32,125 nucleotides of DNA, from assembly GCA_030629865.1 (NCBI GenBank), contig DAOVOC010000002.1:1-32125 (forward strand), in the 5' to 3' direction. The notes under the pieces were generated by a model. That model ran no database searches. It was given only the letters and a program-made list of their open reading frames with translations, and was not told the DNA's origin. Of this stretch, positions 1 through 22,452 are shown in pieces. How positions within the stretch are numbered: position 1 is the stretch's first letter; each line of letters begins with the position of its first letter. The DNA is from a bacterium (GTDB lineage: Bacteria > Babelota > Babeliae > Babelales > GCA-2401785). Both the position numbers and the translations under genes were made by a program.

Positions 1-3000
1 GTGAATACCTTGATCTTGGCAAATTAATTGATGGTAGAAATGGTTCAATTTCGTTTGAAGCGAAGGGTCCCGGTAACTTTTTTGTTGGGTTTGCAAATCA
101 GAAAAAAGTGATTGGAAAGGGTGATGAGTTATACGAAATAGTTCTTGGTGGGCAAAACAATACTCAAACACATATTTGCACGCGCCATTTGGCGCCTCCA
201 GTTGCAGTGCTTTTGCAAGACCAGTCACCTGATGCGGGGCTGAATGCATTCGATTTTGAAAAATATTGGATCAGTTTTAATAGTGGTGTTGTCACCATTG
301 GTCGTGGTGAGTGGAGCAAAAATCCCATTTTGTCTTGGCAAGATCCATATCCGAATCTCAAATATCTTTCTGTTTTTCTTGCCTCGTGGAACGCTCCGAT
401 TAATGTAAGAAATATTCATGTTGGTCCTGCTGTAGAAAATTTAACGGCTGAAAAAATTCAATCGATTATGCAAAAAGATCTAAAGGCAATAGAATCTAAA
501 CTCGAAAAAAAAGATAAAGATGAACTTGTAAGCATTACAGAACACGACAAGATGAAAAAAGAAGCATTTATGCTCGATAAGGGCCTTTTGGAAAAACAGG
601 ACGCATTTAAATATGACGAATTAGAGCTTGCTTCGATGGAAATGAAATATGACGACTTGATGTACGAAGATCTTGCTTGGGAAGCCATGGAGCGTATGAA
701 GGGTGAGCAGGTAACTTCGCTGCAAGAAGAAATTAAAACTGTTGAAGAAAAACAAGAAAGAGTAAAAGACGAAGAAGCTGAGCAACGTAAAATAGATAGA
801 ACTCGGCGTGGTGCTCTGCAACGTGAACGAGCTATGGGTATGACAATGGTTCTCATGACGCCACGAATGTTGAAAATGGAGATGACTCAAGTTGGCCAAA
901 CTGTAGGAGCGATTGCCAGGTCTCCAAAGGCAATTATGCAGTTGGGTAAAAAGGCATGGGAAAGAATGTCGAAGAAAAAGGATGCAAAGGGACTTGCTGA
1001 TAAAAGCCAAAAAGCACAAAAGCAGCTTAAGACTGCAAAAGAAAAATTGGGCAAGATAAGAAAAGATGAAAAAATGACCAGTCCAGCCAAATTGATGCTT
1101 GGTGGAAAACCTGAATTGAGAAAGGCCCGTAAAGCTGAAAAAAAAGCAAAAAAGGATCTTGATAAAGCACAAAAGCAAGTCCAAAAAATTAAAGGAGAAG
1201 AAGAGTCTGTCGCGCGTTTACAAAAGAAAACTCTAAAAACAGCCGAGGCCGCTGACTTGAAAGCAAAAGAATATCGGGAAGCCGCTGAAAAATTTGATGC
1301 GCCTAAGGGTTCTGAAGAAAAGGTTAAAAAACTTAAAAGTCAGGCGGAAGAAATAAGAAAACAGGCGCAAAAGTATGATGAGCAGGCTACAGCTGCACAA
1401 GATGTTGGAAAATCCAGAAAAGCAAAAAAACTTTCCCAAAAAGCTGATGAATTAAGAGTAAAATCGAGGCAATATTCAAAAGAGGCAGAAACGGTTGGGC
1501 AAAGCAAACAAGCCAGAAAGCTTTTGGAAAAGGCCGACGCACAAAAATTTAAAGCTGACATGGCAAGATTTCGGGAGAAAAAACTTGCAGGAAAAGTTAG
1601 AGAAGGTATTGATATCAAGCCTCAGAAAAAAAGCAGTGAGTACGCAGATATCGAAAAAACTACTTCTAAGTGGTGGAGCGTTGTTCCTGGTGGAAGGTCT
1701 TTTGCTAAGGGCTTTAGAGAAGGTTTGCGTGGACAAGATGCTATTAAAAGTGAGCTGCGACAATTTGCAAGTTTTTTCCATTTAACAAATAAATCTCGTT
1801 ACGAAATGGTTCCAGATCCAAAAAATCCAGGCAAAATGATTGTCAAAAAAGATGAACGTGGCAAAAAAGTGATCAAATACAAACGTGATGCAGAAGGTGA
1901 CATTGTTTATAAAGTGAGAACAGGTCCTGATACAGGTAAGCCAATTTATAAAAATGGTCGGCCGGTTCTAGAAACAGATTCAAAAGGGCGTTCAGTTCCA
2001 GAAGAAGATTCAATGGCTAGAATAAACGTCTTAAGGATTGCTGGGGACGAGCTCCATGATCTGAAAAAGTTTTTGAGCGTGCGGAAGAAAGACCGATTTG
2101 AAATGGTTCCTTCTGAAAAATATGATAAACAAGAGAAGCTTGCTGATGAATTGGAAGGGGAGATTCTTGATGTGTCTGCTAAGCCAAGGCAAAGGCTTAA
2201 AACATCAGCAATTTCTCGAAAAGAAAAAGGTAGAAAAGCTAAAATGGTGCCTCTTAGGGACGCGAGTGGTAAACCAGTCTTGAAGCGCGAATGCAAGCGT
2301 GATCGTTATGGTGATATTATTTATGAGCCTAAGATTAAAGATAAAAAAATTGTTTATAAGAAGAAAGATGGCAAAGATGTTTATGCCACAGTTAAAGAGG
2401 CTGATGGGATAACGCCAGTTTATAAAAGAGATGATTTTGGAAATCTGGAACTAGACAAGAGTGGCAAGCAAATACCTGTCTATAAATTAGATGAAGAAAA
2501 CAACAAAATACGTGAATATGAGCCTGCTGTAATGACTTATAACGATAAGAAAAAAACACAGATTATTGATCCTAGAACCGGCAAACCTATGCTCCAGCCA
2601 AAATTTGAAAATGCAATGTCTAAGGATGGCCGATTTCTGATGAAAGATGGGTCTGGCAAACATCATCTTGTAACTAGTGACAAGCTTAAAGATGTTAAGG
2701 GTAAATGGAGCCATGTTCCAGCTTTGGTTCCAGAGGCTTCTGCTTGGGCACATTTGAAAAATAAGATGAAAGAATATGAAGCGTGGAAGGCAGAAACAAC
2801 AACGTGGCAAAAAACTAAAAAGATTTTAGGCAAAGGCGCTAAAGGGCTTGTTAAACTTCCGTTCCAGCCGTTTCTTGTTTCTGGAAAAGCGATGGCTGGA
2901 AAAGAAAAAATGGGTGGAGTTACAAAGGCGATGCTACTTGGATTGGGCTTACCTCTTGGAGCTATTGGTGTTTTCTTTGGTGCCATGGGTGGCGAAGAAG

Positions 3001-3116
3001 GTGAAATTATTACGCCGCAGGGCAATGTTATACGAACGGAAGAAGAAGATGAGGGGGCGCAAGACCCAACATTTAAAGGAAGTTATGTTCATAGTCTTGG
3101 TCGTGCTGACACATAA
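1..3116 (+). CDS. Giant exported protein paralogue, 3' part (5' end lies upstream of the window): one FAMeT-like module, long Lys/Glu-rich coiled-coil region, degenerate D-x-x-G-K-P-x-Y-K repeats, C-terminal Gly-rich TM anchor and acidic end
   Basis: Frame 3 is open from nt 3; there is no stop before the GTG at 108 used by the ORF track. Nt 3-107 translate EYLDLGKLIDGRNGSISFEAKGPGNFFVGFANQKK, which aligns with GSVSFEAKGTNDIFVAFAS (from 7088) and GSVSFEAKGANDIMVGLAA (from 12535) in the two downstream paralogues. The module continues ELYEIVLGGQNN...KYWISFNSGVVTIGRGEW...LSWQDPYP...NIHVGPAV. Hydrophobic segment GVTKAMLLGLGLPLGAIGVFFGAMGG at 2914-2993. Stop TAA 3114-3116. Confidence 0.85.
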   Translation, partial: EYLDLGKLIDGRNGSISFEAKGPGNFFVGFANQKKVIGKGDELYEIVLGGQNNTQTHICTRHLAPPVAVLLQDQSPDAGLNAFDFEKYWISFNSGVVTIGRGEWSKNPILSWQDPYPNLKYLSVFLASWNAPINVRNIHVGPAVENLTAEKIQSIMQKDLKAIESKLEKKDKDELVSITEHDKMKKEAFMLDKGLLEKQDAFKYDELELASMEMKYDDLMYEDLAWEAMERMKGEQVTSLQEEIKTVEEKQERVKDEEAEQRKIDRTRRGALQRERAMGMTMVLMTPRMLKMEMTQVGQTVGAIARSPKAIMQLGKKAWERMSKKKDAKGLADKSQKAQKQLKTAKEKLGKIRKDEKMTSPAKLMLGGKPELRKARKAEKKAKKDLDKAQKQVQKIKGEEESVARLQKKTLKTAEAADLKAKEYREAAEKFDAPKGSEEKVKKLKSQAEEIRKQAQKYDEQATAAQDVGKSRKAKKLSQKADELRVKSRQYSKEAETVGQSKQARKLLEKADAQKFKADMARFREKKLAGKVREGIDIKPQKKSSEYADIEKTTSKWWSVVPGGRSFAKGFREGLRGQDAIKSELRQFASFFHLTNKSRYEMVPDPKNPGKMIVKKDERGKKVIKYKRDAEGDIVYKVRTGPDTGKPIYKNGRPVLETDSKGRSVPEEDSMARINVLRIAGDELHDLKKFLSVRKKDRFEMVPSEKYDKQEKLADELEGEILDVSAKPRQRLKTSAISRKEKGRKAKMVPLRDASGKPVLKRECKRDRYGDIIYEPKIKDKKIVYKKKDGKDVYATVKEADGITPVYKRDDFGNLELDKSGKQIPVYKLDEENNKIREYEPAVMTYNDKKKTQIIDPRTGKPMLQPKFENAMSKDGRFLMKDGSGKHHLVTSDKLKDVKGKWSHVPALVPEASAWAHLKNKMKEYEAWKAETTTWQKTKKILGKGAKGLVKLPFQPFLVSGKAMAGKEKMGGVTKAMLLGLGLPLGAIGVFFGAMGGEEGEIITPQGNVIRTEEEDEGAQDPTFKGSYVHSLGRADT

Positions 3117-3139
3117 GAATTAAAGAATTGGTGGGGAGT

Positions 3140-6100
3140 ATGCAAAAAAGAATAGCTTTGCGAGTTTTAAGTCTTTTGTTTTTCGGTTTAACGCTTGGTG
3201 CTCAGCAGGACGTTGCTGTAACTGATCCTAATCAAGCTTTAAAGGCTACCAAAGCAAAAGAAGCCGCACAAAAAAAGGCAGACAAGTATAAAATTACTTA
3301 CGGTGCGGCGCATGGCTATGCTTTTTTGGAGCGCATTCGTAATTTAACAGATTTTCCGGCGTCGGTTTTTTATAAAAAAACTATTCATGATCAGTTGCCT
3401 ATGGATTCGATGGTGCGCATTAAATCATTTAAAGAAAAGTTTGGGCTTGAAGGTAAATATTATGCAGCACGTTTGGTTGGTGGTGGATGGCGCCTAAAAG
3501 CTGATACTGATGATCCAGAAGATCCTGCCACACAATTTATTGTTCACCGGCATGTTTCGCGAGATTTAAGCGACTGGATTGGTTTGAGCTCCACTGTTGT
3601 AGGCAAGCGATATCTTAATGCAATGCCATCTAATGCAACTCAGTTTGGAGCAGATGATTTTTCTGATGACATGAGGATGGAGACTCATTGGAAGGTTGTT
3701 GGAAGCAATTTGCAGCGCTGCAGTTTAAAAAATCGCCTGACTCAAGGTCTTTTGAGTTGTCGAGACAAGGAAGACAAACAAGAAGTTGGTAAATATGTTC
3801 CACCTCCACCAGTACAATTTAAGACCCTTTATACAAAGAAAGAGAGAGAGCAGGCTGGGTGGTATCGCTGGAGCCCTAGACTAAAAACTTCTATTTTGGG
3901 TAGGAGTGATGTTCCAAAACTTTTATCTTTATCTTGGTTAAGCAAAAATCCTTATAAGGCTTATGTTTTGGTTAAGCGTAAGCATTCAACATTTGGTGAC
4001 AAAGCTCTTAAAGACACAAAAGAGTGGGTTCAAGTTCGTGATGCCAAGTTATCTTTTGTTAAAGCTAAACCAAAAGATTCTGACTTTTTGACAAAACTTT
4101 TACAGAAAAAGGAGCGTACTAAATTAAATAGACAGGCAACTATTAAATCAGCTTCAGAAGAAACTTTTCGTGCTAAAAACCCTTATTCTCTTCGTGAGAT
4201 GATATGTTACATCAATAAAACGCGTCATCACATTCCTGCAAAAGGGAATATTCCTGTTGCCATAGCAGCTATAAAACGATTTGCTGCAGAAGCTGACCAA
4301 TCTAGAGCTCGTGTTATTTCGCAGAAGAAAGAACTGCACTATGGTGACAAGGTACGCATTGTTCACCACGATACTTGGCAGCAGCTTTATGCAGAAAACA
4401 AAACAATTTTTTGTGCGAATGAGGATTCTCCAAACGAATATAATAATGAATCGAATTCATGGTGGATTATAAAAGGTCCACACAAAATAAATGATCCATG
4501 GAACTGCCAAATTGGAACACCTGTAAAAAATGGTGACATTATTCGTCTTGAGCACGAACAATTACATAAAAATTTGATGTGTTCCAAAGAAGGATCACCT
4601 CCTAAAGCAAAAACAATATGGGGTAGTAAGCCTGATGATGGTAAGGAATATCTTACTACTTTGGCAGGCAGCAAAGGAGTTGGTAATAGTGCTGATAACT
4701 GGATAATTAATTTTGAAAATGATGATGATTCACTTTATAAGGGCGCAAACTTTTATCTAACGCACCGCAATACAGGATTTTCTTTGCGTTCACATACGGA
4801 ACTTATTAGCAAGAAACCAAATAAACAACGTGTGGTTGCTTTCCAGAAAAAGAAAGCGAATTGTCGATGGTTTGTTAATGGTGTTTCTTATGGTGATATT
4901 CCAGTGATTGATATTGCCTGGACTGGTTTTCCTAATGGTTCTCCTGCAATTGATGAAACCCCCAAAGAGGCGATTGGCTTTGAAATTGTAAAACTTGGTA
5001 TGGGTGGCGGAATTAAACCAAACACTACGCTTGATTTTTATATGCCTATAAAAGACAAAAAACCAAAAGTTTCAGGCTTTGCAAAAGAAGAGGTTCCTGG
5101 TTTTGGTGCAGGCTACATGGTCAAGCTTAGTCCGCTCATCAGTAAGGGTGTAGCGTGGATAGAACAATCGTTTGAAACAGAAGGAAAGGCTACGGTTGCG
5201 TTTTTGACTCGCGTTTCTGACAAGGGTGATGCGCAAGTAATATTTGGAAACAATATCAATCTTGATTATACGTGGAAAATTGTTATTGGCGCAGACAGAA
5301 ATGGATCATCAAAAATTATTAAGCGTACTTTGGATGTCCAAGGTAATGCTCAAGAAGAAGTTGTTGCGCAAGTTAAAAAAGCCGACAATCCATTGGCAAC
5401 GCCGACGCCCGGAACATTTGTTCCTTATTGGATCAGCGTGGATGATGGGCTTATTCTTGTTGGTGCAAGCACAACGCCTGGTGAAAATATCTTTATGGCA
5501 TGGCGTGACCCAAATCCAAGAAGTGATGTTTCTCGTATCGGTTTTGGGACACATGATGCCTTTGTTGAATACACCGGAATTGAAGTGCGCGATCCGGTTA
5601 CATTACAAAAACCAGAAAAAGTTTATGCAAAGGCAACAAGCGGGGTTTCGGTTTCGTCTCCAGATCCAAAATGGCTCAGTACTCCATTTAGGGTTCCAGG
5701 TCGTGGAACATTCGAATTTGAAGTCAGTGGTGACAAAGATGCAATGATATATCTTTCAGAAAAGAAATCGGCAAAAAATAAACATTATCAACTGGTTTTA
5801 AGTGCAGATGAAACCGGCAATGCGGTGCTGCGCAAGTGGGATGAGCGTAGCAAAATGTATATTGATTTGGTTAAGACGAGCACACAATATCGAGAAAAAA
5901 ATCAGCTAAATACCAAAGAATATAAAAAGTTCTGGATTAGTCTTGCCAAAGGAAGAATATTTATTGGTCGTGGCGAAATTGGGCAAGGGCTATTTTTATA
6001 TCATTGGGACATGAAGCCGCTTGAAAAAATACTGAATCTTGGTGTTGCTTGCAGTGGCGGGACAACCTCATTTCGAAATGTTGTCATTGCGCCTCCGGTG

Positions 6101-7915
6101 GACGTTTCTGTTGCAGAAAAGCGTGAAGCATATGTTCAAGAACAAGATAGATTTAAATTTAGAGGCTCGCTGCACGTAATTTCTCCTTACGAATATGTTC
6201 TGTCTCAAGAAGGGCAGGCTGTTAAATTCGAAGATAAAATCAATCATAAGACTTACTATCCAGGTAAAACACCACAACAAGATGCAAAATACTACTTTAT
6301 GCTTATGCTCCACAAAGATGGTTTTCCAGAGCTTGTGTGGGCACGTGAGCCAGAAAATCCACAAAAATTGTCAATTGAAAAACGGGCATCTATTCTTCGT
6401 GCCGAGTCTGACACATGGTTTCAGGCATCAACGTGGGTGCAAGGTATGGGTGTGCTTGGTGGTCTTGCTGGTGTTGCTGCAAGTATCAGGTATGCAGAAA
6501 AAGGTATTGATCTTGGTAAAGAAGCTGGAGTAAAAGAAACTGCAGCTAATTTGAATTTCAGATCTCACGATTCTTATGTTTATACCGATCAGGCAGTTGC
6601 ACAACAACTAGCCCAGGCACATGTTCCAGAAGAAGCGCGTGCAAATAAAATGAAAGCAGAAGAAAAAATTGAACTTGGTGGAAAGTGGTCACCTTCAACA
6701 ATCGATAAATTAGAGAGATTAATTCCGCTGTATCAGCAAGTTATTAACTTGGTTAACCATCCATTTGTTGTCAGAGACCAATACATCAAGAAAAGTTTGT
6801 TTGATGCTATTTCTACAATGTACGAATCTCACCAAGACATTCACGCACACCCTCAAGCGCCCGTTGATCTAACTTATTCAGGAATGATTAACCTTCTTGT
6901 TTCTGCCTACAACAATCCTTACTTGATAGATTTGAACAAGAAAAAAGAAATGAAGCTCAAAGAGGTTTGGTACAGCCAGATAAATGAGCTTGCGCGTCAG
7001 ATGCTTCAGAAAGATCCAGAAACTAAAGTTTCACTTCAGCCATGTTATGGCGAATATGTTTGGCTTAACGATCAATTCGAAGAGCCTGGAAAGGGATCAG
7101 TTTCGTTTGAAGCAAAAGGTACGAATGATATTTTTGTTGCGTTCGCTTCTATGCCAACACGCGTGCGTAACACCGATAATGAAATTTACGAAACCGTTCT
7201 TGGCGGTTGGGATAACGAAAAGGCCGTAATTCGTGTTCGCAGTCTTGATAAATCTGTTTCGGAAAGCTTTGACAAAAAACTTAATGTTAATCAAATCAAG
7301 TATCAGCGTTATTGGGTCAGTGTCAAAGATGGTCAAATGAATCTTGGAACGGGTGATCTTGATATTAAAAACATAATTTTTTCGTGGAAAGATCCATATC
7401 CAATAAAAGATGTTCAGTTTGTTGGAATTAGTAACTGGAATGCAGCTGTTAAATTTAAGAACGTCCAGATTGGACCTGCTGTTGAAGATGTTGAAGAACA
7501 TAAAGCAAAAATTATTGCTCAAATTATGGAGCTTAGACAAAAACAGGCACAAGCTTCTGTGATAGAGAGTGAAGAAGATTTGACAGAGACTCCTGTAGAG
7601 CCTTATGACGAAGAAGCTACTGAATATGCTGGCGAAGTTGAGCCGGAAGTTATTACAGATCAGGTTGAAGAAATGGCTCCAGTAGAAGATGAAGAAGAGT
7701 TGTCGATGGCAGAGATCGTTGAGTCAGAAAAAACAGTAGAAGAAGAAATCGAACAACTTATTGAACCAGCCGTAGAGCCTTTTGTTGAAGAGGATACTGT
7801 TGTGGATCAAGAGGCGGCCATTAAGGAAGAAACTACTGCTGTTAAAGAAGAACCAGTAGTTAAATATCGTACGGTTCGTAGAGGGCGGTACACATATCAA
7901 GAGCCTATCAAATAA
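3140..7915 (+). CDS. Giant secreted protein: signal peptide, conserved N-terminal domain, one MIR-type beta-trefoil, three FAMeT-like (Methyltransf_FA-like) modules, acidic C-terminal tail
   Basis: ATG 3140 is preceded by GGTGGGGAG; the TTG 3128 of the ORF track is less likely. MQKRIALRVLSLLFFGLTLGAQQ looks like a cleavable signal peptide. Three MIR-like repeats lie at about 4334-4800 (LHYGDKVRIVHH; SWWIIKGPH..C.IGTPVKNGDIIRLEHEQLHKNLMCS; GNSADNWII...FYLTHRNTGFSLRSH) and resemble SDF2/POMT MIR domains. FAMeT-like modules lie at about 5180-5600, 5699-6100 and 7088-7483 (e.g. GSVSFEAKGTNDIFVAF..NEIYETVLGGWDNEKAVIRVRS..YQRYWVSVKDGQMNLGTGD..FSWKDPYP..NVQIGPAV). Glu-rich tail from about 7550. Stop TAA 7913-7915. 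Confidence 0.85.
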   Translation: MQKRIALRVLSLLFFGLTLGAQQDVAVTDPNQALKATKAKEAAQKKADKYKITYGAAHGYAFLERIRNLTDFPASVFYKKTIHDQLPMDSMVRIKSFKEKFGLEGKYYAARLVGGGWRLKADTDDPEDPATQFIVHRHVSRDLSDWIGLSSTVVGKRYLNAMPSNATQFGADDFSDDMRMETHWKVVGSNLQRCSLKNRLTQGLLSCRDKEDKQEVGKYVPPPPVQFKTLYTKKEREQAGWYRWSPRLKTSILGRSDVPKLLSLSWLSKNPYKAYVLVKRKHSTFGDKALKDTKEWVQVRDAKLSFVKAKPKDSDFLTKLLQKKERTKLNRQATIKSASEETFRAKNPYSLREMICYINKTRHHIPAKGNIPVAIAAIKRFAAEADQSRARVISQKKELHYGDKVRIVHHDTWQQLYAENKTIFCANEDSPNEYNNESNSWWIIKGPHKINDPWNCQIGTPVKNGDIIRLEHEQLHKNLMCSKEGSPPKAKTIWGSKPDDGKEYLTTLAGSKGVGNSADNWIINFENDDDSLYKGANFYLTHRNTGFSLRSHTELISKKPNKQRVVAFQKKKANCRWFVNGVSYGDIPVIDIAWTGFPNGSPAIDETPKEAIGFEIVKLGMGGGIKPNTTLDFYMPIKDKKPKVSGFAKEEVPGFGAGYMVKLSPLISKGVAWIEQSFETEGKATVAFLTRVSDKGDAQVIFGNNINLDYTWKIVIGADRNGSSKIIKRTLDVQGNAQEEVVAQVKKADNPLATPTPGTFVPYWISVDDGLILVGASTTPGENIFMAWRDPNPRSDVSRIGFGTHDAFVEYTGIEVRDPVTLQKPEKVYAKATSGVSVSSPDPKWLSTPFRVPGRGTFEFEVSGDKDAMIYLSEKKSAKNKHYQLVLSADETGNAVLRKWDERSKMYIDLVKTSTQYREKNQLNTKEYKKFWISLAKGRIFIGRGEIGQGLFLYHWDMKPLEKILNLGVACSGGTTSFRNVVIAPPVDVSVAEKREAYVQEQDRFKFRGSLHVISPYEYVLSQEGQAVKFEDKINHKTYYPGKTPQQDAKYYFMLMLHKDGFPELVWAREPENPQKLSIEKRASILRAESDTWFQASTWVQGMGVLGGLAGVAASIRYAEKGIDLGKEAGVKETAANLNFRSHDSYVYTDQAVAQQLAQAHVPEEARANKMKAEEKIELGGKWSPSTIDKLERLIPLYQQVINLVNHPFVVRDQYIKKSLFDAISTMYESHQDIHAHPQAPVDLTYSGMINLLVSAYNNPYLIDLNKKKEMKLKEVWYSQINELARQMLQKDPETKVSLQPCYGEYVWLNDQFEEPGKGSVSFEAKGTNDIFVAFASMPTRVRNTDNEIYETVLGGWDNEKAVIRVRSLDKSVSESFDKKLNVNQIKYQRYWVSVKDGQMNLGTGDLDIKNIIFSWKDPYPIKDVQFVGISNWNAAVKFKNVQIGPAVEDVEEHKAKIIAQIMELRQKQAQASVIESEEDLTETPVEPYDEEATEYAGEVEPEVITDQVEEMAPVEDEEELSMAEIVESEKTVEEEIEQLIEPAVEPFVEEDTVVDQEAAIKEETTAVKEEPVVKYRTVRRGRYTYQEPIK

Positions 7916-7929
7916 GAGGAGGGCTTGAT

Positions 7930-8025
7930 GTGAGAATGTTTAAACAGCCCGGAATGACGATTGAGAAAATTGCTAAAAATGAAATAGACATTGAAAACCT
8001 TTTCTTAAATAGAAAGGGTGAATAG
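7930..8025 (+). CDS. Possible 31-codon upstream small ORF translationally coupled to the next giant gene (speculative)
   Basis: AGGAGG at 7917-7922 is followed 7 nt later by GTG 7930. The frame reads VRMFKQPGMTIEKIAKNEIDIENLFLNRKGE. Its TAG (8023-8025) overlaps the GTG start at 8025 (TAGTG). There is no homology evidence. Confidence 0.2.
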   Translation: MRMFKQPGMTIEKIAKNEIDIENLFLNRKGE

Positions 8026-11000
8026 TGAAGCTTAAATTATTTGTCATCCCACTTCTAATTCCCAGTTTTTTAAATGCTACAGTGGCGGACCATGGATTTG
8101 CGGTAATCGAGCGATTGCGCAACAGTACAACATATCCAGTCCAAGTTAGCACGAAAAAAACTGTTCATGACCGGCTGCCTATAGAGTCAGTTGTTCGCAT
8201 AAAGTCGCGCAAGCCAGAATATGGTGAAGATGGTCGCTACTATGCTCTGCGCCAGGATGGTGGCCGCTATATTTTGCGCTCTGATGCAATCGATTCGTCT
8301 GATCCTGCAACCGAATTTATTGTGTATCGTCATCTTGATAAAGATCTAAACGATTGGCTGGGATTTTCTTCATTTGCTGCAAATAGACAGATGATGCGTG
8401 CAACAAAAACTCAGTCGGTTCAGTTTTTTGGTAAAGACTTTGAAAATGAAGAGTCGATAGGTGCTCACTGGAAAATTTCTGGAAGCAACTTGATTGGGTG
8501 TCATCTGCAAAGTCGTTTAACAAAGGGCTTTTTGAGCGCGCGTAGCTTGGATGATGCTCGCCTGGATATTGCAAAATATGTTCGACCAGAGATGCCGAAA
8601 ATAAAGTTTTTGGACAGTAAAAGTTTTTCTAAAGATAAGCCACGTTACAAAAGTTACGTAAAAGAGCTTAAAAAAGATGTTTTTCTATCTCTTGGTGATT
8701 TGTCTGTTCTTGCGCGCAATCCATATGAGCCTTGGTTTACCTTCAAGAAATTTAAACCTGGCTTTTTTAAAATGGGTTTTTCTGATGCAAAGGCAACGGT
8801 AAAAATAAGAAAGAAATCCAATCCTTTTTCTGTTCATGAAATGCTTGCACTTATAAATCATACTAGGCGGTACATTTTAGAAAAACCAACGCAGGTAGTA
8901 AGTACAGTTGAAGGATTTGGCAAAGAGGCTGAAGAGGCGCGCAAGAGATCATTTCAAGAAAACCATCAACTTTTATATGGAGACAAAATTCGATTTGTTC
9001 ACCATTTTACGTGGCAAAATTTATATGCAAATCGTGACAGGTTCAATCACGAAGGTAGTTCTGAAAATATGATGACTTTCTGTTCTAACGACGATGTGAA
9101 CAGCGAGGATTCTGAGTTTGCTGATTCGTGGTGGATTGTTAAAGGACCGCACAGTGATGACGATCGTTTTAATTGTGCGATTGGGACGCCCGTGGGGAAT
9201 AGTGCAACGATTCGTTTGGAACATGTTATAACGGGGAAAAATTTAAGATGTCAAAAAACCGCGCCACCTAGCGTTATAGTTGGCGGGATTGAAAGACAAA
9301 AACATCGTTATGAAGTTTCTATTGCTGGTAAAGATGGTATTGGAACTTCTTATGATAACTGGACAATTTCATTTCACGATAAAGCTAAGCAGTTCAATTC
9401 TGGACAACTTTTTTTATTAAATCATGTTGCTACAGGAAGTTCTCTTTTTTCTGATAATGAATTTTTTACTTCAAGTGGTAGTTCTACAAATATTGTTGAT
9501 GATAACTCAATGTGGATTGTTGAGCTTACTCTTGGTGTTACAGGAGAGGGCCGACCTGTAAGATTTCGAGATCGAGTTAGATTTAAAAATATGACAACGG
9601 GCCGCTATCTGCACCTGCAGCAGCATGATTCTAATGTTGCGGCAACAGAAGATATACAAAAGGAAGACACTGCAATAATGTGGCGCATTAAAGGAGCACA
9701 CAAAAAAGGTGACAGGTGGAATTGCAGAAATGAACAAGTCGAATCTGGTGCTATAATTCGCTTAGAGAGTTCTTCTAACGGAAAAAATCTTTTTATCGAT
9801 CCTACTTTTGAAAATCCTGGTTTGAAGACGCAGCAAACCATGGGTCCCGGCATTGGAAATGAAAATGACGATTGGGAACTAAAAATAATTGGCAAGAATC
9901 AAACCCTCGTCGATGGCTCCAGAGTTGTTCTTCGTCATGTACAAAGTAGACAAAAAAAAGTAGTGCGAGAGATTGCCGTTAATACATCTGATGAACTTAT
10001 CGCCAAAGAATATATTGAGAAAATTGCTGCAAAGAAACCAGAAAAGCAAAGCATTTTGCAGCGTGTAGCGGCATTGCAGCTCGAAACCGAAGAGACAAAA
10101 CAAATGCGCGAAGAGATTCGCAAGCTTGATGATGAAGATCAAAAAAAACAAGCTGCGCTTCAAAAAAAAGCAAAGGCTAGAGCAGATAAATTAACTGGCG
10201 AAGCAAAAGTGAAAGCTTTAGAAGCGATTCAAGAAATCAAAAAGCCAAAGAGTCCACGTAAAAAAGAGTTAGAAGCAAAATTAACGCAGCATGATCACAA
10301 GCTTTTATGGTTTGTTAGCGATTCTAGCACAAGCCAAGTTTCTGCAAAAGATACTGCATGGACGGGCGTTCCATATGGATCGCCTGCAGAGCAAGGACCA
10401 GATGAGTTGATAGATATAGAGGTTGTGCGTCTTGGCCGTGGTGCCGGCGTTTTGCCTGGCAGAACAGTTGATATCAAGGTTGATTTGCTTACAAAGCCTC
10501 CAACATTTTCGGGATTTGCAATAGAAAAAGTTTTAAATTTTGATTCAAGTTTCCTTCTTAACCTAAATCCGCTTCTAAATAAAGGCGCTGCATGGCTCGA
10601 AAGATCTCTAGACACCCCAGGGCGGGCATCAGTTGCTTTTATGGCGCAGGCGAAAGATAAAGGCGATATTCAGGTGCTATTTGGTAACGAGCTTGTATTG
10701 GATTATACGTGGAAAATTATTATTGGCGCCAACAACAATACCGAAACACAAATTATTCGCAGAAGTTTAAAAGATGGCGAGCCAAAAGATAAAGTTGTTG
10801 CATCTGTGCGTAAAGAGACAAATCCTTTGGCAGCAGCTTCTCCCGGGCGTTTTGTTCCTTACTGGGTAAGTGTTTATGATGGCGAGATTCTTTTAGGTGG
10901 AGGTAACATTATTGGTGAGAGCGTAATTCTTGCCTGGAAAGATGTAGAGCCTCGTAGCAAAGTTTCTCGAATTGGTTTTGGGTCATATAAATCTGCAGTC

Positions 11001-12941
11001 AAATATGCCGGCGTTCAAGTTGGCTCACCTGTTACATTGCAAAAACCAAAAAGAATTTATGTAAAAATTCCTTCTGCCTCTCTAAGTGCTTCTCAAGAAC
11101 CTGTGTGGCAACAGAAGGGGCTGCGCATTCCTGGCAGGGGCAGCGTTAGTTTTTCTGTCAAAGGCAGGTCGGAAGTATTAGTTGTTCTTGGTAATGCCGG
11201 TGGCAGAGCCTCTGGGCGTTATGCTGTTCGGTTTACAAGCCAAAATCACGAACAAAAAGGAAGAGTGTCTTTATTGAAGTTAGATGGGCAAAAAGATGAG
11301 TACACCACTTTAGCTTCAACTCCGTTTGGTATTTCTACTTGGGCATTGCAAGAACAGGAGTGGAAAAGTTTTTGGATAAGTGTGATGGGTGGACGGTTCT
11401 TTATTGGAAATGGTGCAATTGGCGAAAATCTTTTCTTGTATCACTGGGACCCGGCCGCATTTGATGAATTTAGGCAAATTGGCTTGCAAAGTGTTGCTGG
11501 AGAAGCCCAACTAAAAGATATTGTTATTGCCCCCGCAGTAACTGTCGCACTACAACAGGAACAAGAAGAATACGAAACAGGTGCCGCTGCAGCGATGAAA
11601 ACTTACAGAGGCGATCTGCATGTTATCGCCCCGTTTGAATACCATTTTTCGCAAGAGGGACAGGTTGTTAAGTTTGAAGACAAAATTAACAAAAAAACAT
11701 TTTATCCAGGAAAAACGCCGCAGCAGGACGCATGGTATTACTTTATGCTCACCATTGCCAAAGATGGATTCCCCAAACTTGTCTGGTCTCGTCAGCCAGA
11801 AAATCCACAAAAAATTGAAAAGCAAAAGTCGGCATATCTAACGCGAGCTGGTGGTGAAGCATTTTACCAAGCGTCAACTTACACACAAGGTGCTGGTGAA
11901 GTGGCCAGTGTTGTTGGAGCAACGCTGAGTATTGCCCATGCAGAAGTTGGCCTTGCCTTGATGAAAAAAGCAATTACTGATGAGGCTAAGGTTAAATATG
12001 GGTATAGAGATCACACGGCGTACACTTATCTTGATGCAACAAATTACACCAAGATGAGTGATGTTGGCATTCCTCGCGAAGCAAAAAACAATCGAATTAA
12101 AGTTGAAGGACTTCTTGAGCTTGGAAGTAAATGGAAGCCTTCTTCTCAAAAAAAATTAGAGCGACTTATTCCCCATTATTTGCAGACAGTTCTTTTGGTT
12201 AACCATCCGTATGTGGTCAGAAACCCTGTTGTTAAAAATAGTATAATTTCCAACATCGAAACGTTGTATGCCGCTCATAAAGAACTGCATGCTCCGCCCA
12301 AGGATAAATATGATCCCACTTATAAACAGATGATGAACCTTCTTATGCATGCCTACAACAACACATCGCTGACAAGCCCTTATGAAGCAAAAGACCAGCA
12401 AAAACGGCTTACATGGCTAGGGTGGCTTAACGAGTTGTCGCGAGAAATTTTGCAAAAAAATCCGCGCGGGACATTAATGTTGCGTCCAAGTTTTGGTGAA
12501 TATGTGTGGCTTTCAGAAAAGTTTGCTCTTCCTGACAGCGGTTCAGTTTCTTTTGAAGCAAAAGGGGCAAATGATATTATGGTCGGCCTTGCTGCAAGGC
12601 CTCAGCAGATGCGCAATACTTCAAACGATATTTATGAAGTCTCTATTGGTTCTAATAACAATTCAATGACTTCCATTCGTGCTTACAGCTTGGACCGGTC
12701 TGTGGCTCAGACAACAAAGCCAAAAGCGCGCGCCAACAGTTTGGTTATGCAAAAATACTGGATTAGCGTTAACAATGGCAAAATTGTATTTGGTAAAGGA
12801 GAGATGTTAGAAGAAAATAAACTTCTAGAGTGGCAGGATCCTTACCCTGTAACTGGAGTGAGAAATATTGGGCTTAGTTGTTGGGATGTGCCCGTAGAAT
12901 TTCGCAATATCACTACAGGGCAGGCTTTGTCGTTCAAATAA
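8025..12941 (+). CDS. Giant secreted protein, paralogue of 3140-7915: signal peptide, conserved N-terminal domain, two MIR-type beta-trefoils, Lys/Glu coiled-coil insert, three FAMeT-like modules
   Basis: GTG 8025 is preceded by AAGGGTG. MKLKLFVIPLLIPSFLNATVA is signal-peptide-like. The protein is colinear with the previous gene by eye. MIR trefoil 1 lies at about 8971-9455 (LLYGDKIRFVHH; SWWIVKGPH..C.IGTPVGNSATIRLEHVITGKNLRCQ; DNWTISF..LFLLNHVATGSSLFS). MIR trefoil 2 lies at about 9558-9950 (VRFRDRVRFKNMTTGRYLHLQ; IMWRIKGAH..W.C..EQVESGAIIRLESSSNGKNLFID; DDWELKI..GSRVVLRHV). Coiled-coil insert at about 9990-10290. FAMeT-like modules at about 10620-11033, 11134-11540 and 12535-12925. Stop TAA 12939-12941. 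Confidence 0.85.
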   Translation: MKLKLFVIPLLIPSFLNATVADHGFAVIERLRNSTTYPVQVSTKKTVHDRLPIESVVRIKSRKPEYGEDGRYYALRQDGGRYILRSDAIDSSDPATEFIVYRHLDKDLNDWLGFSSFAANRQMMRATKTQSVQFFGKDFENEESIGAHWKISGSNLIGCHLQSRLTKGFLSARSLDDARLDIAKYVRPEMPKIKFLDSKSFSKDKPRYKSYVKELKKDVFLSLGDLSVLARNPYEPWFTFKKFKPGFFKMGFSDAKATVKIRKKSNPFSVHEMLALINHTRRYILEKPTQVVSTVEGFGKEAEEARKRSFQENHQLLYGDKIRFVHHFTWQNLYANRDRFNHEGSSENMMTFCSNDDVNSEDSEFADSWWIVKGPHSDDDRFNCAIGTPVGNSATIRLEHVITGKNLRCQKTAPPSVIVGGIERQKHRYEVSIAGKDGIGTSYDNWTISFHDKAKQFNSGQLFLLNHVATGSSLFSDNEFFTSSGSSTNIVDDNSMWIVELTLGVTGEGRPVRFRDRVRFKNMTTGRYLHLQQHDSNVAATEDIQKEDTAIMWRIKGAHKKGDRWNCRNEQVESGAIIRLESSSNGKNLFIDPTFENPGLKTQQTMGPGIGNENDDWELKIIGKNQTLVDGSRVVLRHVQSRQKKVVREIAVNTSDELIAKEYIEKIAAKKPEKQSILQRVAALQLETEETKQMREEIRKLDDEDQKKQAALQKKAKARADKLTGEAKVKALEAIQEIKKPKSPRKKELEAKLTQHDHKLLWFVSDSSTSQVSAKDTAWTGVPYGSPAEQGPDELIDIEVVRLGRGAGVLPGRTVDIKVDLLTKPPTFSGFAIEKVLNFDSSFLLNLNPLLNKGAAWLERSLDTPGRASVAFMAQAKDKGDIQVLFGNELVLDYTWKIIIGANNNTETQIIRRSLKDGEPKDKVVASVRKETNPLAAASPGRFVPYWVSVYDGEILLGGGNIIGESVILAWKDVEPRSKVSRIGFGSYKSAVKYAGVQVGSPVTLQKPKRIYVKIPSASLSASQEPVWQQKGLRIPGRGSVSFSVKGRSEVLVVLGNAGGRASGRYAVRFTSQNHEQKGRVSLLKLDGQKDEYTTLASTPFGISTWALQEQEWKSFWISVMGGRFFIGNGAIGENLFLYHWDPAAFDEFRQIGLQSVAGEAQLKDIVIAPAVTVALQQEQEEYETGAAAAMKTYRGDLHVIAPFEYHFSQEGQVVKFEDKINKKTFYPGKTPQQDAWYYFMLTIAKDGFPKLVWSRQPENPQKIEKQKSAYLTRAGGEAFYQASTYTQGAGEVASVVGATLSIAHAEVGLALMKKAITDEAKVKYGYRDHTAYTYLDATNYTKMSDVGIPREAKNNRIKVEGLLELGSKWKPSSQKKLERLIPHYLQTVLLVNHPYVVRNPVVKNSIISNIETLYAAHKELHAPPKDKYDPTYKQMMNLLMHAYNNTSLTSPYEAKDQQKRLTWLGWLNELSREILQKNPRGTLMLRPSFGEYVWLSEKFALPDSGSVSFEAKGANDIMVGLAARPQQMRNTSNDIYEVSIGSNNNSMTSIRAYSLDRSVAQTTKPKARANSLVMQKYWISVNNGKIVFGKGEMLEENKLLEWQDPYPVTGVRNIGLSCWDVPVEFRNITTGQALSFK

Positions 12942-12947
12942 AGTCCA

Positions 12948-12971
12948 GGGGCCGCGTACTAACGCGGCCCT
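12948..12971. terminator. GC-rich hairpin between convergent genes, candidate bidirectional terminator
   Basis: GGGCCGCGT-acta-ACGCGGCCC is a perfect 9-bp stem (12949-12957 / 12962-12970) with a 4-nt loop. It starts 7 nt after the TAA of the + strand gene and ends 54 nt before the stop of the - strand gene. No strong T-run follows on the + strand; TTTATTT lies on the - strand side. Confidence 0.5.
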
Positions 12972-13024
12972 CTCGGCTCCCACACCACACAGGTGCCGGG
13001 ATAGGGAAAATGTTTAATTTTTTA

Positions 13025-14995
13025 TTAGCCAAATATCCAGGACCAAAATCCTGGCTTTTCTTGTTTTGCTGCCTCTTGTTTAACTGTAACTGCAATATTT
13101 GTAGAAGGATCTTTAGCGAGTGCCTTCTTGGTGCGAGTTATTTGTGCTCTTTGTGCTTCTGCCTGTTTTTGGGTTACCAGGCGTGCAATTTTAATATCAA
13201 GTCCGTCTTGGCGCGCGGCAACGCGAACAATGCCGTTACATAGTTCTTCAATTCCACGTGCAGAAAAGCCACGAGTTCTTTGGGCAAGTTCTAGATAGAA
13301 CTTGTTAAATCCAACTGGGATTGCAACATCTCGTTTTTCAGCGGCTTTTCTTAGATACATTTCAATAAGTTGTTCTCGTTCTGGTAGTTCTGGAAGTCCA
13401 ATTTCAAATTGGTGACCAGAAGTTCTGTCAAACACGGCGCTGTCGAGTTGTTCTGGATGGTTGGTGGCCATAATAAACATAAATCCATCGTTGGAAGGCG
13501 CAGGCACAGCTGCTAAAAATGCTTCTGTTAATGCGCGAGTTAGCGATGTTGCTTCTGTGCCATATCGAGCTGCAAAAATACGTTCTGCTTCGTCAATAAA
13601 TATAATTACGCGTTTTTTACCCTTGCGTGCGCGCCTTCTTGTGTAGTCCATAAGTTCCGTAAAGCTTTTTGCAGCATTGTGTGTTGTCATTTGAGTAAAA
13701 CGAGAACCAGAGGTAAAAAAGAATTCAACGTTTTTGTCCACAGTGTGCATGCGTTTTGCCATGCCTTTACCAAAGAACGATTTTCCTGTTCCTGGAGGAC
13801 CATGGAGTAAAATGTTGTACATTTCGCCAAGTGTGGAAATTTCTTCGATAGTTCCTTCTAGCTGACCCTTGAGTTTTGGAGAAATAACCATCTCGCTCAA
13901 ATCGCGGCATTCATCGAGTTTTATTGGGTCCAGAACTGCAGGGCGGCCAAATTGTTTTACAGCCCATTTGTAGAAAAGAATGCTTGATACAATAAAACCG
14001 CTTCCAATGACGGTGTATAATCCCAAGGAAAGCATTTTTTTTCTAAAGGATGTGGTTTGGGCTTCTTCTATAGATTTAACTGCTCCGACTCTTCCATTAA
14101 GAGCGTCAGTAATGGCTTGTTCGCTTGTCGCTTTTTGCCCTTCAGTACTTAATAGCCTTTTTCTTTTTGCCTCTTCCTCGGTCTCAAGTTGCCGTCTTTC
14201 TAGTTCTTTCTTTGTCAATTTAGTTTGGTGATCTGAATCAGTAAGCTCTTCTTGCCTTTGTGTTTGGGCTTGGGATTTAGCAAGAATTGCTTCGGTGTTT
14301 TTTTGGGACATTGAACTTATAAAAGTTGAAACAGCTTTTTTTGCTTTAGTCCAATTTTCAGGAGCTGAAACTGCCTTTTTTTGCGGGTGACTTCCTGTTA
14401 TGACTGTTTGCCCTGCAAGAAATGCTTTTAAATAGAAAGAAAATTTGTCGGTAGCGGTCGATGATCTTGGACTCATTAAGCTGAGATTTTTTTGAGGTTT
14501 ATTGCTTGTCTCAAATGTAGTAAGGTTTGTTTCTAGTAAAAGTATCGGTCGATCTAAAACTTTAGTTTTAAATTCTGATTGCCAATATTTTTTTGTATGC
14601 TGCATTGTTTTTTTGTCAGAATGTTGCCAGCCACCAGCCAGCCATGCGGTTTCAGCGCTTTTCAGAAGATTCTCAAATGCTTTTTTTAGGCTTTCCTTTT
14701 TTGTTTTTTCTAATTTTTGCGCAACTTCAACGATTGTTGGTTCCCATAGGGGTGACACCGGAAAAGATTGTGTTAGGGAATTTTTTTTACCTTTACCTTT
14801 AGTTGGTAAGTTGCCTACGGTAGGAACTCTTGATCTTGATCTCGATTTTCTTAGATTTGGTTTCCTTGATGGTGATCTTGGTTTTTCTGTTCCCAAAACT
14901 GTCGTTGTTACACCAAAGCCTACAAAAAGCACAAAAAGGGTGGCGAAAAGCCTGCTAGAAAAGAAATTTTTGATTTTAAACATTTTTGTGTTCAT
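13025..14995 (-). CDS. Membrane-anchored AAA+ ATPase with N-terminal signal anchor, coiled coil, central TM and C-terminal AAA module; ATAD3-like
   Basis: ATG 14995 is preceded by AGGGAAAAACA. N-terminal hydrophobic segment [20 protein letters not shown]. Coiled coil [29 protein letters not shown]. Central TM [22 protein letters not shown]. Walker A GPPGTGKS, Walker B IIFIDEAE, sensor-1 region [11 protein letters not shown], Arg finger region AVFDR. Several stretches recall ATAD3 from memory: [44 protein letters not shown]. Stop TAA 13025-13027. Confidence 0.8.
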   Translation of the reverse strand: [656 protein letters not shown]

Positions 14996-15284
14996 TGTTT
15001 TTCCCTATTAATATTTTGCCTAATTTCTTTGTTTATCACTTTTAGTGGTGTGCTACTACCCCATGGCACTGGCCAGCTGGCAACATATGCAGTGGTGTTT
15101 TACATATGTTTGTAGTGTTTTTACCAGCCTTCAGATTACGGGCTGTGCAGCTCGAGTCAAATTGAAACATTTTTTGTACAAAAAAGTGCTTTTTATGGGG
15201 TTTTGCTTTTTGGGCAGGTGGAAAAAAAAGATCTGTGGTGTAAGCTGTTTTGACATTATATTGGCCTCTAGAAGCGTGGTAAGA

Positions 15285-16337: not shown

Positions 16338-16359
16338 TATTTATAAAAATACGGCGGCC

Positions 16360-17349: not shown

Positions 17350-17463
17350 TGTTCTTTGTGTGGCAATTCTCTCTCGCAACTCGTTGTGTTGCAAAGCCTG
17401 CTGATAGTACGATTTGATCTGATTACCAAACTTTTTTACTTGTGCTTTGAGGGAGTGTTTCCC

Positions 17464-22416: not shown

Positions 22417-22452
22417 AAAGGGTTGAGTTTGAGAATGCTGGGGGGCAGGGTT

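Follow-up and report, generated by a model that had tools for sequence, protein, structure and literature searches.

What do the three giant genes at the start of this stretch of a Dependentiae genome encode, and what might their products do? The window, that is, the whole 32,125-nucleotide stretch of contig DAOVOC010000002.1 that was analysed, opens with three consecutive plus-strand genes (here A, B, and C), which a preliminary description made from the letters alone had taken for exported paralogues that combine MIR β-trefoils with modules named after arthropod farnesoic acid O-methyltransferase (FAMeT). The Dependentiae (TM6/Babelota), a widespread group, depend on protists as obligate parasites or symbionts, and only a handful of strains are in culture. 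The genes and their predicted export signals are:

3..3116, plus strand: gene A, 3′ part, from translation (1037 codons; 5′ end beyond the window)
3140..7915, plus strand: gene B (1591 aa, 180 kDa; orthologue P0003)
3140..3202, plus strand: B, predicted Sec-type signal peptide, MQKRIALRVLSLLFFGLTLGA, followed by QQ (by eye and hydropathy)
8025..12941, plus strand: gene C (1638 aa, 184 kDa; orthologue P0004)
8025..8078, plus strand: C, predicted signal peptide, MKLKLFVIPLLIPSFLNA, followed by TV (by eye and hydropathy)

The in-frame ORF of gene A was called at 108..3116 on the plus strand, with the reading frame open upstream to base 3, while the plus-strand ORF of gene B, which stops at 7915, could start at 3128 or 3140. 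Shine-Dalgarno-like motifs were found 5′ of the ATG at 3140 (GGGGAG) and of the GTG at 8025 (AAGGGTG). Promoter and terminator scans of the window scored no better than shuffled sequences, and searches of it for tRNA and Rfam features gave none. The masses of B and C agreed with the earlier estimate of ~180 kDa.

B and C are colinear, with 43% identity over 897 aa and 36% over 538 aa. Within the window, A has only its last PF12248 module in common with them (31–38% identity); its full-length orthologue, the first gene of the array in the Dependentiae single-cell genome (SAG) AM-312-O17 (L002:5333-9976, 1547 aa, ~58% identical, range 58–59%), aligned with the B/C core over about 830–870 aa at 29% identity, and A is therefore a true paralogue. 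This orthologue carries neither the N-terminal domain nor MIR trefoils. The order A-B-C is common to the source genome and this related single-cell genome, in which the orthologues of B (P0003) and C (P0004) are 67–71% and 54% identical, respectively. Between B and C, codon-position identity was 0.40 at third positions vs. 0.62 at positions 1 and 2. Third-position identity is low, and in the related genome a separate orthologue exists for each of the three genes; by sequence comparison, they are therefore old paralogues, as the preliminary description had concluded. It had also held that the copies are maintained; consistently, the gene order is conserved, tandem copies are frequent (see below), and B, compared by sequence, is as conserved as the HisRS and DXS encoded in the window (73% and 65% identical to those of the single-cell genome, respectively), that is, at housekeeping level, all of which indicate a maintained function. 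The identities of HisRS and DXS also support the assignment of the window to the Dependentiae.

An n-region, an h-region, and a small-x-small cleavage motif were all present in B, in C, and in the A orthologue, whose signal-peptide-like N-terminus reads MRQLRFAFIAMILLLITINTA followed by DH, so that Sec signal peptides are predicted for the three by hydropathy and by eye. Across the family, a hydrophobic stretch lies within the first 45 residues in 80 of 91 full-length members. The proteins showed no lipobox, no secretion-system signal, and no outer-membrane anchor. For C. destructans, a cultured member of the Dependentiae, export is proposed to run via Sec, and signal peptides were assigned to 44% of the coding sequences (PMC6561590).

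To place these proteins in a family, a core profile of 897 positions was built from B and C. An exhaustive HMMER search yielded 172 representatives at E<1e-30, and the A orthologue also matched the profile. The core is shared by at least 124 clusters (50% identity), at least 27 of which combine it with MIR, so the supposition that the MIR plus FAMeT architecture was a one-off did not hold. A view of the proteins as "almost unique", drawn from word-index searches that gave four relatives for the full protein, none for a single module, and four for a 44-sequence profile, was likewise discarded in the light of the exhaustive search. Besides B and C, 98 further representatives possess the first module (M1), the β unit, the helical bundle, and the third module (M3) together, and the conserved order of the core, as read from sequence profiles, is M1, M2, β unit, helical hairpin, five-helix bundle, and M3. 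Every member labelled to phylum level belongs to Candidatus Dependentiae or Babeliales, which supports the expected confinement to intracellular-type bacteria. Tandem copies (two to four) occurred at six of nine loci inspected, and single-copy loci also exist; the loci sit among core genes, e.g., gyrB, topA, and tRNA synthetases. A GTDB genome scan with back-translated patterns matched only in the single-cell genome, but these patterns were narrow and the result is therefore no measure of family distribution; a scan of metagenome contigs for the family gave no match. A literature search returned no paper linking Dependentiae with 'farnesoic' or 'MIR domain', and, judging by titles, none of the papers mentioning Methyltransf_FA is about bacteria. 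The family is thus sizeable, and none of its members is characterised.

Seven FAMeT-like modules had been proposed, and the Pfam profile PF12248 (Methyltransf_FA) matched at all seven places:

3..437, plus strand: A, PF12248 module equivalent to M3 of B and C (Pfam 69.9 bits; local HMM)
5141..5602, plus strand: B, PF12248 M1 (Pfam 39.6 bits; local HMM)
5657..6103, plus strand: B, PF12248 M2 (Pfam 51.6 bits; local HMM)
7043..7486, plus strand: B, PF12248 M3 (Pfam 72.5 bits)
10578..11036, plus strand: C, PF12248 M1 (Pfam 42.1 bits)
11091..11543, plus strand: C, PF12248 M2, divergent (Pfam 18.3 bits; local HMM; position equals B M2)
12489..12929, plus strand: C, PF12248 M3, the module modelled (Pfam 73.8 bits; AF2 pLDDT 92.8; Foldseek)

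Six modules exceeded the gathering score of 24.2 bits, with 39.6–73.8 bits, and only C M2 fell below it, at the position where its counterpart in B scores 51.6 bits. The earlier placement of the modules was right, while the proposed domain starts at 8971, 11134, and 12535 were each one base out of frame. The AF2 model of C M3, a confident one, is an 11-strand β-sandwich, whose best PDB neighbours in Foldseek were the galectin-like 1oq1, ERGIC-53/VIP36, galectins, and CBM66 (E 1e-5 to 3e-4, TM-score 0.55–0.69, identity 7–15%); resemblance to ConA-like domains of phage tail and receptor-binding proteins was also observed. On this model, the PF12248 module is a galectin/concanavalin-like β-sandwich, and with such TM-scores at such identities it is to be called a lectin-like scaffold, not a lectin. 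Galectins, L-type lectins (ERGIC-53, VIP36), CBM66, and the B. subtilis protein 1oq1 have the same kind of two-sheet jelly-roll, but the likeness is at the fold level only, with no detectable sequence similarity: a PDB sequence search with the module profile gave no match at E<1, the galectin and L-type lectin families included. Neither a Rossmann or SAM-binding fold nor a nucleotide-binding site was found in the module model. A methyltransferase function of the module was rejected on the fold, and the name "FAMeT", judged from the model, has no enzymatic meaning here.

The same ~140-residue module, significant by Pfam, is found in arthropod FAMeT and in CPAMD8, where it has no established biochemical function. 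Insect and crustacean FAMeT carry one to four tandem copies (PMC10015273), CPAMD8 has the module embedded in a thioester-protein scaffold (PMC9363628), and the Lingula anatina protein P0094 has 14 copies. Arthropod FAMeT is small and pairs PF12248 with DUF3421/DM9, whereas A, B, and C are proteins of 1,500–1,640 aa with other domains; no DUF3421/DM9 match was found in them by Pfam scan, which sets them outside the arthropod FAMeT family. In addition, arthropod FAMeT and CPAMD8 have neither the core of β unit, hairpin, and helical bundle nor MIR or Tectonin heads. For arthropod endocrinology, where FAMeT methyltransferase activity "has never been reliably shown" (PMC10015273), the confident galectin/ConA-like model speaks against FAMeT being a methyltransferase.

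N-terminal to these modules lie the following features of B and C:

3302..4285, plus strand: B, N-terminal family domain (local HMM)
4301..4804, plus strand: B, MIR β-trefoil (Pfam 22.8 bits; family profile vs. 3mal E 2.4e-10)
8082..8924, plus strand: C, N-terminal family domain (local HMM)
8937..9464, plus strand: C, MIR trefoil 1 (Pfam 23.2 bits; phmmer vs. SDF2-like 3mal E 3.6e-4; family profile E 2.4e-10)
9507..9959, plus strand: C, MIR trefoil 2 (Pfam 25.8 bits; 1t9f E 0.016)
9960..10346, plus strand: C, Lys/Glu/Ala-rich linker, absent from B (sequence comparison and composition)

The three single-domain MIR scores lie around the PF02815 cut-off of 25.6 bits, and the whole protein C scored 44.6 bits in Pfam. 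Further, a profile of the family MIR regions matched the SDF2-like 3mal over 164 of 169 positions and also matched the MIR domains of Pmt3 and Pmt2 and IP3 receptors. The assignment thus extends, at the level of profiles, over the whole three-motif trefoil that is known from SDF2/SDF2-like proteins, protein O-mannosyltransferases, and IP3/ryanodine receptors, and the three trefoils were confirmed where they had been proposed. In B and C, the trefoil sits in a bacterial 180-kDa protein predicted to be exported, with no GT-C transferase or ion channel attached. The claim that all three paralogues combine MIR with FAMeT modules stood for B (one trefoil) and C (two) but failed for A, which has none, as judged by its orthologue. 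For the N-terminal domain, weak β-trefoil hints were obtained (RicinB_lectin_2 0.0028, MIR 0.044, Fascin, FGF1 E 1.3), with a probability of 4.5% against the MIR profile in hhalign.

Among the 124 core-family clusters, the head contained Tectonin in 40 and MIR in 27, and both in none. Tectonin (PF19193) scored above the cut-off in the heads of P0037, P0041, P0061, P0099, and P0019. The Tectonin-headed relatives MBS1988427.1 (P0037) and MBX9830556.1 (P0046) have the same core, signal peptides, tandem arrangement, and phylum, but carry a β-propeller instead of MIR trefoils and are only about 25% identical in the core. According to these profile matches, the variable head is exchangeable, being either a MIR trefoil or a Tectonin β-propeller.

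The remaining features, the middle region and the tails, are:

2931..2987, plus strand: A, C-terminal hydrophobic helix MLLGLGLPLGAIGVFFGAM (Kyte-Doolittle 1.95 over 19 aa; stop codon 42 residues on)
6137..7042, plus strand: B, middle region with β unit (LHVISPYEY...), uncharged Gly/Ala-rich segment TWVQGMGVLGGLAGVAASI, and helical bundle (by homology to the C model)
7487..7912, plus strand: B, acidic C-terminal tail, 26% Glu (composition)
11586..12488, plus strand: C, middle region with 5-strand β unit, helical hairpin with VASVVGATLSIAHAEVGLA, and five-helix bundle (AF2 model)

The linker LHVI.P.EY..SQEGQ.VKFEDKIN, pointed out earlier, is real in the B/C alignment and kept across the family. 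The small β unit, the Gly/Ala-rich hairpin, and the five-helix bundle form a family-defining middle, which was absent from the earlier description. In gene A, the PF12248 module is followed by a ~830-aa Lys/Glu-rich tail and then by the C-terminal hydrophobic helix, which is conserved in the SAG orthologue as IIGVGIPLTAAGIFFGAMA and found in A-type members only.

Taken together, the results make one reading slightly more likely than not (roughly 0.55): after export, A, B, and C would act in the interaction with the host, on the cell surface or as secreted proteins, not as enzymes but by multivalent binding of glycans. A binding or adhesin role, also suggested in the preliminary description, fits because the PF12248 sandwich is galectin/ConA-like, MIR is a carbohydrate-binding module, and relatives carry a Tectonin head. 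MIR is an established β-trefoil carbohydrate-binding module that binds mannose, with protein O-mannosyltransferase (PMT) MIR domains among its examples (PMC7759382), and Tectonins are lectins (PMC5238581, PMC4539729). The proteins would be exported via Sec and then shown on the cell or released; each would bind host glycoconjugates, at the host surface or in the vacuole, through several weak sites simultaneously, which might help the bacterium to attach, to be taken up, or to dock inside the cell. Joint action of the three co-conserved paralogues is conceivable, with the headless A probably tethered to the membrane by its predicted C-terminal helix at the end of the long Lys-rich tail. Several points count against the glycan-binding reading: the MIR domains of IP3 and ryanodine receptors are not known to bind sugars, β-sandwiches and trefoils can also mediate protein–protein contacts, a protein as conserved as B is unlike what is expected of an arms-race adhesin, and the conserved hydrophobic segment in mid-protein is left unexplained by a pure lectin model.

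The conservation of B at housekeeping level would fit structural or scaffold proteins of the envelope, e.g., those of a surface layer or of a tether across the periplasm, whose modules bind the bacterium's own peptidoglycan or glycans and not those of the host. Such a role would also agree with a widespread, multi-copy family amid gyrB, topA, and tRNA synthetase genes, and with the predicted membrane anchor and very long charged stalk of A. However, the exchange of MIR and Tectonin heads, like the variation in copy number, is more reminiscent of proteins that adapt to changing ligands outside the cell, and Pfam and profile searches revealed no S-layer, SLH, or peptidoglycan-binding domain of a known kind; we regard an envelope scaffold as rather unlikely.

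The hydrophobic segment lies in the middle region, for which the C model had a pLDDT of 78 (about 90 in the five-helix bundle). Of 106 members, 80 carry an uncharged Gly/Ala/Ser-rich 19-mer between the β unit and the bundle (median hydropathy 1.57; at least 1.6 in 40 members), and long variants have it halfway between two amphipathic flanks of ~60–110 aa that are rich in Ala, Lys, Glu, and Gln. In a bold reading, which we hold to be unlikely, the family would be a Dependentiae-specific host-membrane machine, in which exchangeable heads and the three sandwiches dock to host glycans, the hairpin with its uncharged glycine-zipper tip then inserts into the plasma or vacuolar membrane of the host, and the tandem paralogues, with A anchored in the bacterial membrane by its C-terminal helix, co-assemble to bridge the parasite and the host or to form a pore between them; if true, it would represent a new class of lectin-coupled α-helical membrane-inserting proteins. 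The more general proposal of lectin-targeted membrane inserters (a pore-former, a translocon, or a host-membrane anchor), whose hairpin would insert into a host (vacuolar) membrane after docking of the lectin modules and whose paralogues would co-assemble, seems likewise doubtful. It draws on the frequency, hydropathy, and flanks of the 19-mer, on its modelled position in a helical hairpin adjoining the five-helix bundle, and on the tandem sets of two to four genes, and it has an analogy in the tripartite α-pore-forming toxins (Hbl, Nhe, AhlABC/SmhABC; ClyA superfamily), which likewise have adjacent paralogous genes and a helical bundle with a hydrophobic hairpin. Those toxins are about 40 kDa and without lectin modules, and no fold or sequence match links them to this family, whose copy number is one to four, single-copy loci included. 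In detail, Foldseek of the C middle-region model against the PDB gave no significant fold among the matches listed (best E 0.035, TM<0.25); the 50 matches listed held no toxin and no ClyA/Hbl/YaxAB-type fold, and the region, hairpin and bundle included, had no accepted match in Pfam or PDB sequences. Assignment to a glycine-zipper 2TM family or to a ClyA type was accordingly not supported by these searches, and a PsbP match (40 residues, E 8e-4) was judged a local chance. Moreover, the hydropathy of the segment is borderline, and it could be buried in the bundle or act as an oligomerisation zipper.

Finally, that the proteins are enzymes, either methyltransferases or carbohydrate-active enzymes with a catalytic centre in the N-terminal or helical parts and the modules as CBMs, is hardly credible: the Pfam name, the CBM66-like modules of a kind that usually accompany glycoside hydrolases, and two regions with no fold assignment speak for it, but the PF12248 sandwich, with no nucleotide-binding site, excludes it at the fold level for that module, FAMeT activity is itself doubted, Pfam and PDB profiles detected no catalytic family in any part of the proteins, and no acid pair is present among the few residues that are invariant in the helical part (Q, Y, N).

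Returning to glycan-binding proteins of host interaction, the family is a good candidate for how Dependentiae parasites grip their protist hosts, since it is phylum-restricted where labelled, large, predicted to be exported, and multi-copy, has a member (B) with housekeeping-like conservation, and is made up of lectin-type scaffolds with swappable heads. It also supplies defined modules suited to testing on glycan arrays or host cells.

Three genes in the same orientation occupy the first 12.9 kb of the window:

3–3116, + strand, gene A, partial at the 5′ end, reading open from base 3
3140–7915, + strand, gene B, starting at ATG 3140 with GGGGAG directly upstream
8025–12941, + strand, gene C, starting at GTG 8025 with AAGGGTG upstream

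ATG 3140 is most likely the start of B; a TTG (3128) lies four codons earlier. B and C were colinear (43% identity over 897 residues, plus 36% over 538), with codon identities of 0.40 at third positions vs. 0.62 at positions 1 and 2. Inside the window, A had only one module in common with B and C, and its paralogy was settled by its orthologue in the Dependentiae single-cell genome (SAG) AM-312-O17, proteins of which, labelled 'Candidatus Dependentiae bacterium', are among the closest relatives of C. The tandem array of three paralogues claimed in the preliminary description was confirmed, and its module places as well, while three of its coordinates were off frame by one base.

In the SAG, three tandem genes encode an A-type protein of 1547 aa, a B-type protein of 1583 aa and a C-type protein truncated by the contig end, and, unlike in the window, they directly follow DXS–HisRS. 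Reciprocal identities between window and SAG were 58%, 67–71%, and 54% for A, B, and C, respectively, and 73% for HisRS and 65% for DXS. Because each paralogue has an orthologue in the SAG, the triplication is older than the split of both genomes, and B is conserved like the housekeeping enzymes.

Outside the array, the window carries bacterial genes, among them those for AlaRS, DXS, HisRS and an amino-acid permease (GC ~0.40). Between the permease and DXS–HisRS, near the synteny break relative to the SAG, an IS30-family transposase is present as two overlapping ORFs on the − strand (27924–28644; N-terminal part at 28204–28644, 61 bits; middle part at 27924–28412, 103 bits), probably a frameshifted pseudogene. 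Convergent with C, a 656-aa protein (13025–14995, − strand) has a hydrophobic N-terminal leader, followed by ~380 residues that matched no family, then by a hydrophobic helix and finally by an AAA+ module of the classic FtsH/CDC48-like type, which lacks a protease domain. Five genes follow at 15045–23256 (+ strand; 430, 339, 693, 992, and 277 aa), packed so tightly that each stop overlaps or adjoins the next start; none had a Pfam or NCBIfam match, and signal-peptide-like N-termini or hydrophobic helices occur in several of them, marking a predicted exported ORFan operon beside the array.

Local HMMs built on the alignment gave the following domain order, in which M1 to M3 are successive PF12248 (Methyltransf_FA) modules:

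Domain order of B and C
signal peptide, B and C
N-terminal domain, ~280 aa, B and C
MIR trefoil, one in B and two in C
charged linker, C only
short beta segment before M1, B and C
PF12248 modules M1 and M2, B and C
conserved beta unit (the "linker" of the preliminary description), B and C
Gly/Ala-rich segment, B and C
helical region, B and C
PF12248 module M3, B and C
C-terminal tail, 140 aa, 26% Glu, B only

Pfam matched PF12248 at all seven places proposed beforehand, six of them over the gathering score; the seventh, M2 of C (18.3 bits), was under it and is the positional counterpart of M2 of B. The three proposed MIR places were likewise matched, with single domains straddling the Pfam cut-off (22.8, 23.2, and 25.8 bits vs. 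25.6) and 44.6 bits for the whole protein C. A profile from the family MIR regions matched the SDF2-like structure 3mal over the entire trefoil (E 2.4e-10), followed by MIR domains of protein O-mannosyltransferases (PMTs) and IP3 receptors. The N-terminal domain gave sub-threshold beta-trefoil hints, and profile–profile comparison showed no similarity to MIR.

The pairing of MIR with PF12248, which had been extended to all three genes, holds for B and C but not for A, as the full A-type protein of the SAG has the conserved core behind a signal peptide, with neither the N-terminal domain nor MIR. Its Lys-rich tail of ~680 aa ends in a hydrophobic helix, 42 residues short of the C-terminus, and the same C-terminal helix is found in the window's A. 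The tail carries short repeats, D-x-x-G-x-x-(I/V)-(Y/L), spaced ~12–20 residues apart (window ~1680–2900; SAG array locus L002 ~8700–9750), with 5 strict matches in both orthologues vs. 0.09 expected from shuffles. In B-type proteins, a Glu-rich tail of ~140 aa (window 7487–7912; C-terminus of the SAG orthologue P0003) precedes a short conserved basic/aromatic end, RRGRYTYQEPIK in B vs. RRVGRYYR in P0003, a possible motif for sorting or binding.

The AF2 model of C's M3, from an alignment of 14 paralogous modules, was an 11-strand beta-sandwich (pLDDT 92.8). Foldseek matched it in the PDB to lectins and carbohydrate-binding modules (E 1e-5 to 3e-4, TM-scores 0.5–0.7, identity 7–15%), namely 1oq1 (a galectin-like protein of B. 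subtilis), ERGIC-53/VIP36, galectins 7/9/10/11/13 and CBM66, and among predicted viral structures to the ConA-like domains found in phage tail and receptor-binding proteins. A search for solved structures with sequence similarity to the module returned none. On this model, the PF12248 domain is a concanavalin/galectin-like scaffold, and the beta-sandwich with its lectin/CBM neighbours rules out a methyltransferase. For the middle region of C, the model (pLDDT 78, bundle ~90) showed a beta unit of five strands, then a helical hairpin and a bundle of five helices, with no significant match in fold, Pfam or PDB searches.

The core profile (897 positions), searched exhaustively with HMMER against 1.84 billion representatives, retrieved 1,054 proteins at E<1e-3, of which 172 reached E<1e-30. 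The core was present in 124 of the best 149 matches, every element of it in 98 of the 124, while 23 of the 149 were plain PF12248 arrays, one of them, with 14 modules, from the brachiopod Lingula anatina (P0094, XP_013402294.1). Such arrays of 4–14 modules came from this animal and from unlabelled metagenomic proteins (P0082, P0088, P0092 etc.). Phylum-level labels of members were all Dependentiae or Babeliales, the others being 'bacterium' or nameless, and every member is annotated 'hypothetical protein'. Of the 91 members whose N-terminus is intact, 80 have a hydrophobic leader. In 80 of 106 members, a stretch of 19 residues between beta unit and bundle contains no charged residue (52% Gly/Ala/Ser vs. 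23% protein-wide; median hydropathy 1.57); in long variants, this stretch sits at the midpoint between two amphipathic flanks rich in Ala/Lys/Glu/Gln (~60–110 residues).

Tandem copies number three in the window and in the SAG, four at L006, and two each at L004, L007 and L008; L001, L009 and L010 have a single copy. The L006 array (1694–20510, Logan ERR14837229; 1647, 1053, 2009, and 1488 aa) has HisRS on one side and TopA on the other, and its second gene, with a faint MIR match and no PF12248, may be a 'head-only' member. The HisRS neighbourhood recurs at L006, in the SAG and in the window (16 kb away).

The head, the variable lectin-type part before the core, was MIR in 27 and a Tectonin beta-propeller in 40 of the 124 core clusters, and both in none; the two occupy the same architectural position and are mutually exclusive family-wide (P0005–P0152). 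Tectonin PF19193 scored over the Pfam cut-off in the five heads tested and was also among precomputed matches. Tectonin-headed pairs adjoin gyrB in two different Dependentiae/Babeliales assemblies (L007, L008). Tectonins are lectins (PMC5238581, PMC4539729), and MIR in PMTs is a mannose-binding beta-trefoil CBM (PMC7759382).

The presence in each chain of three ConA/galectin-like modules and one or two trefoils, a head exchanged between two unrelated lectin folds at one position, the signal peptides and the expansion into arrays together argue, with a probability of roughly 0.55, that the family comprises exported, non-enzymatic, multivalent binding proteins for avidity-based carbohydrate recognition. 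Several modules per chain would engage host glycoconjugates at once, the "obvious" target given the dependence of Dependentiae on protist hosts and their use of Sec as the export route (PMC6561590). A, which has a long charged tail and a helix near the C-terminus, would be the membrane-tethered member, while B and C, lacking an anchor, might be released or retained via the shared core. The analysis demonstrates the domains and folds, the export signals, the distribution and the conservation; ligand, location, host target and any A–B–C complex are what we infer.

The housekeeping-level conservation of B and the embedding of family genes among core genes would also suit a structural role in the bacterial envelope, an unlikely reading against which the head swapping speaks. 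Still more doubtful is a lectin-coupled membrane-inserting device with a glycine-zipper hairpin, reminiscent of tripartite alpha-pore-forming toxins; it would account for the sole feature left unexplained by carbohydrate recognition, but neither fold nor profile searches gave support for it. An enzyme is very improbable, as the PF12248 fold contradicts it and the other regions give no support.

Multi-domain lectin-like exported proteins are familiar in host-associated bacteria. PF12248 and MIR are known parts; what is undescribed is their combination, the conserved middle region and the whole family. In the paper collection searched, none paired 'Dependentiae' with 'MIR domain' or 'farnesoic', and of the five that mention Methyltransf_FA none has a title that suggests a bacterial subject. 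The novelty assigned to the combination stands, but not its singularity, the architecture being common within the phylum. Although its function is conjecture, the family is phylum-specific, strongly maintained and experimentally tractable, and bears directly on the host-interaction biology of Dependentiae.
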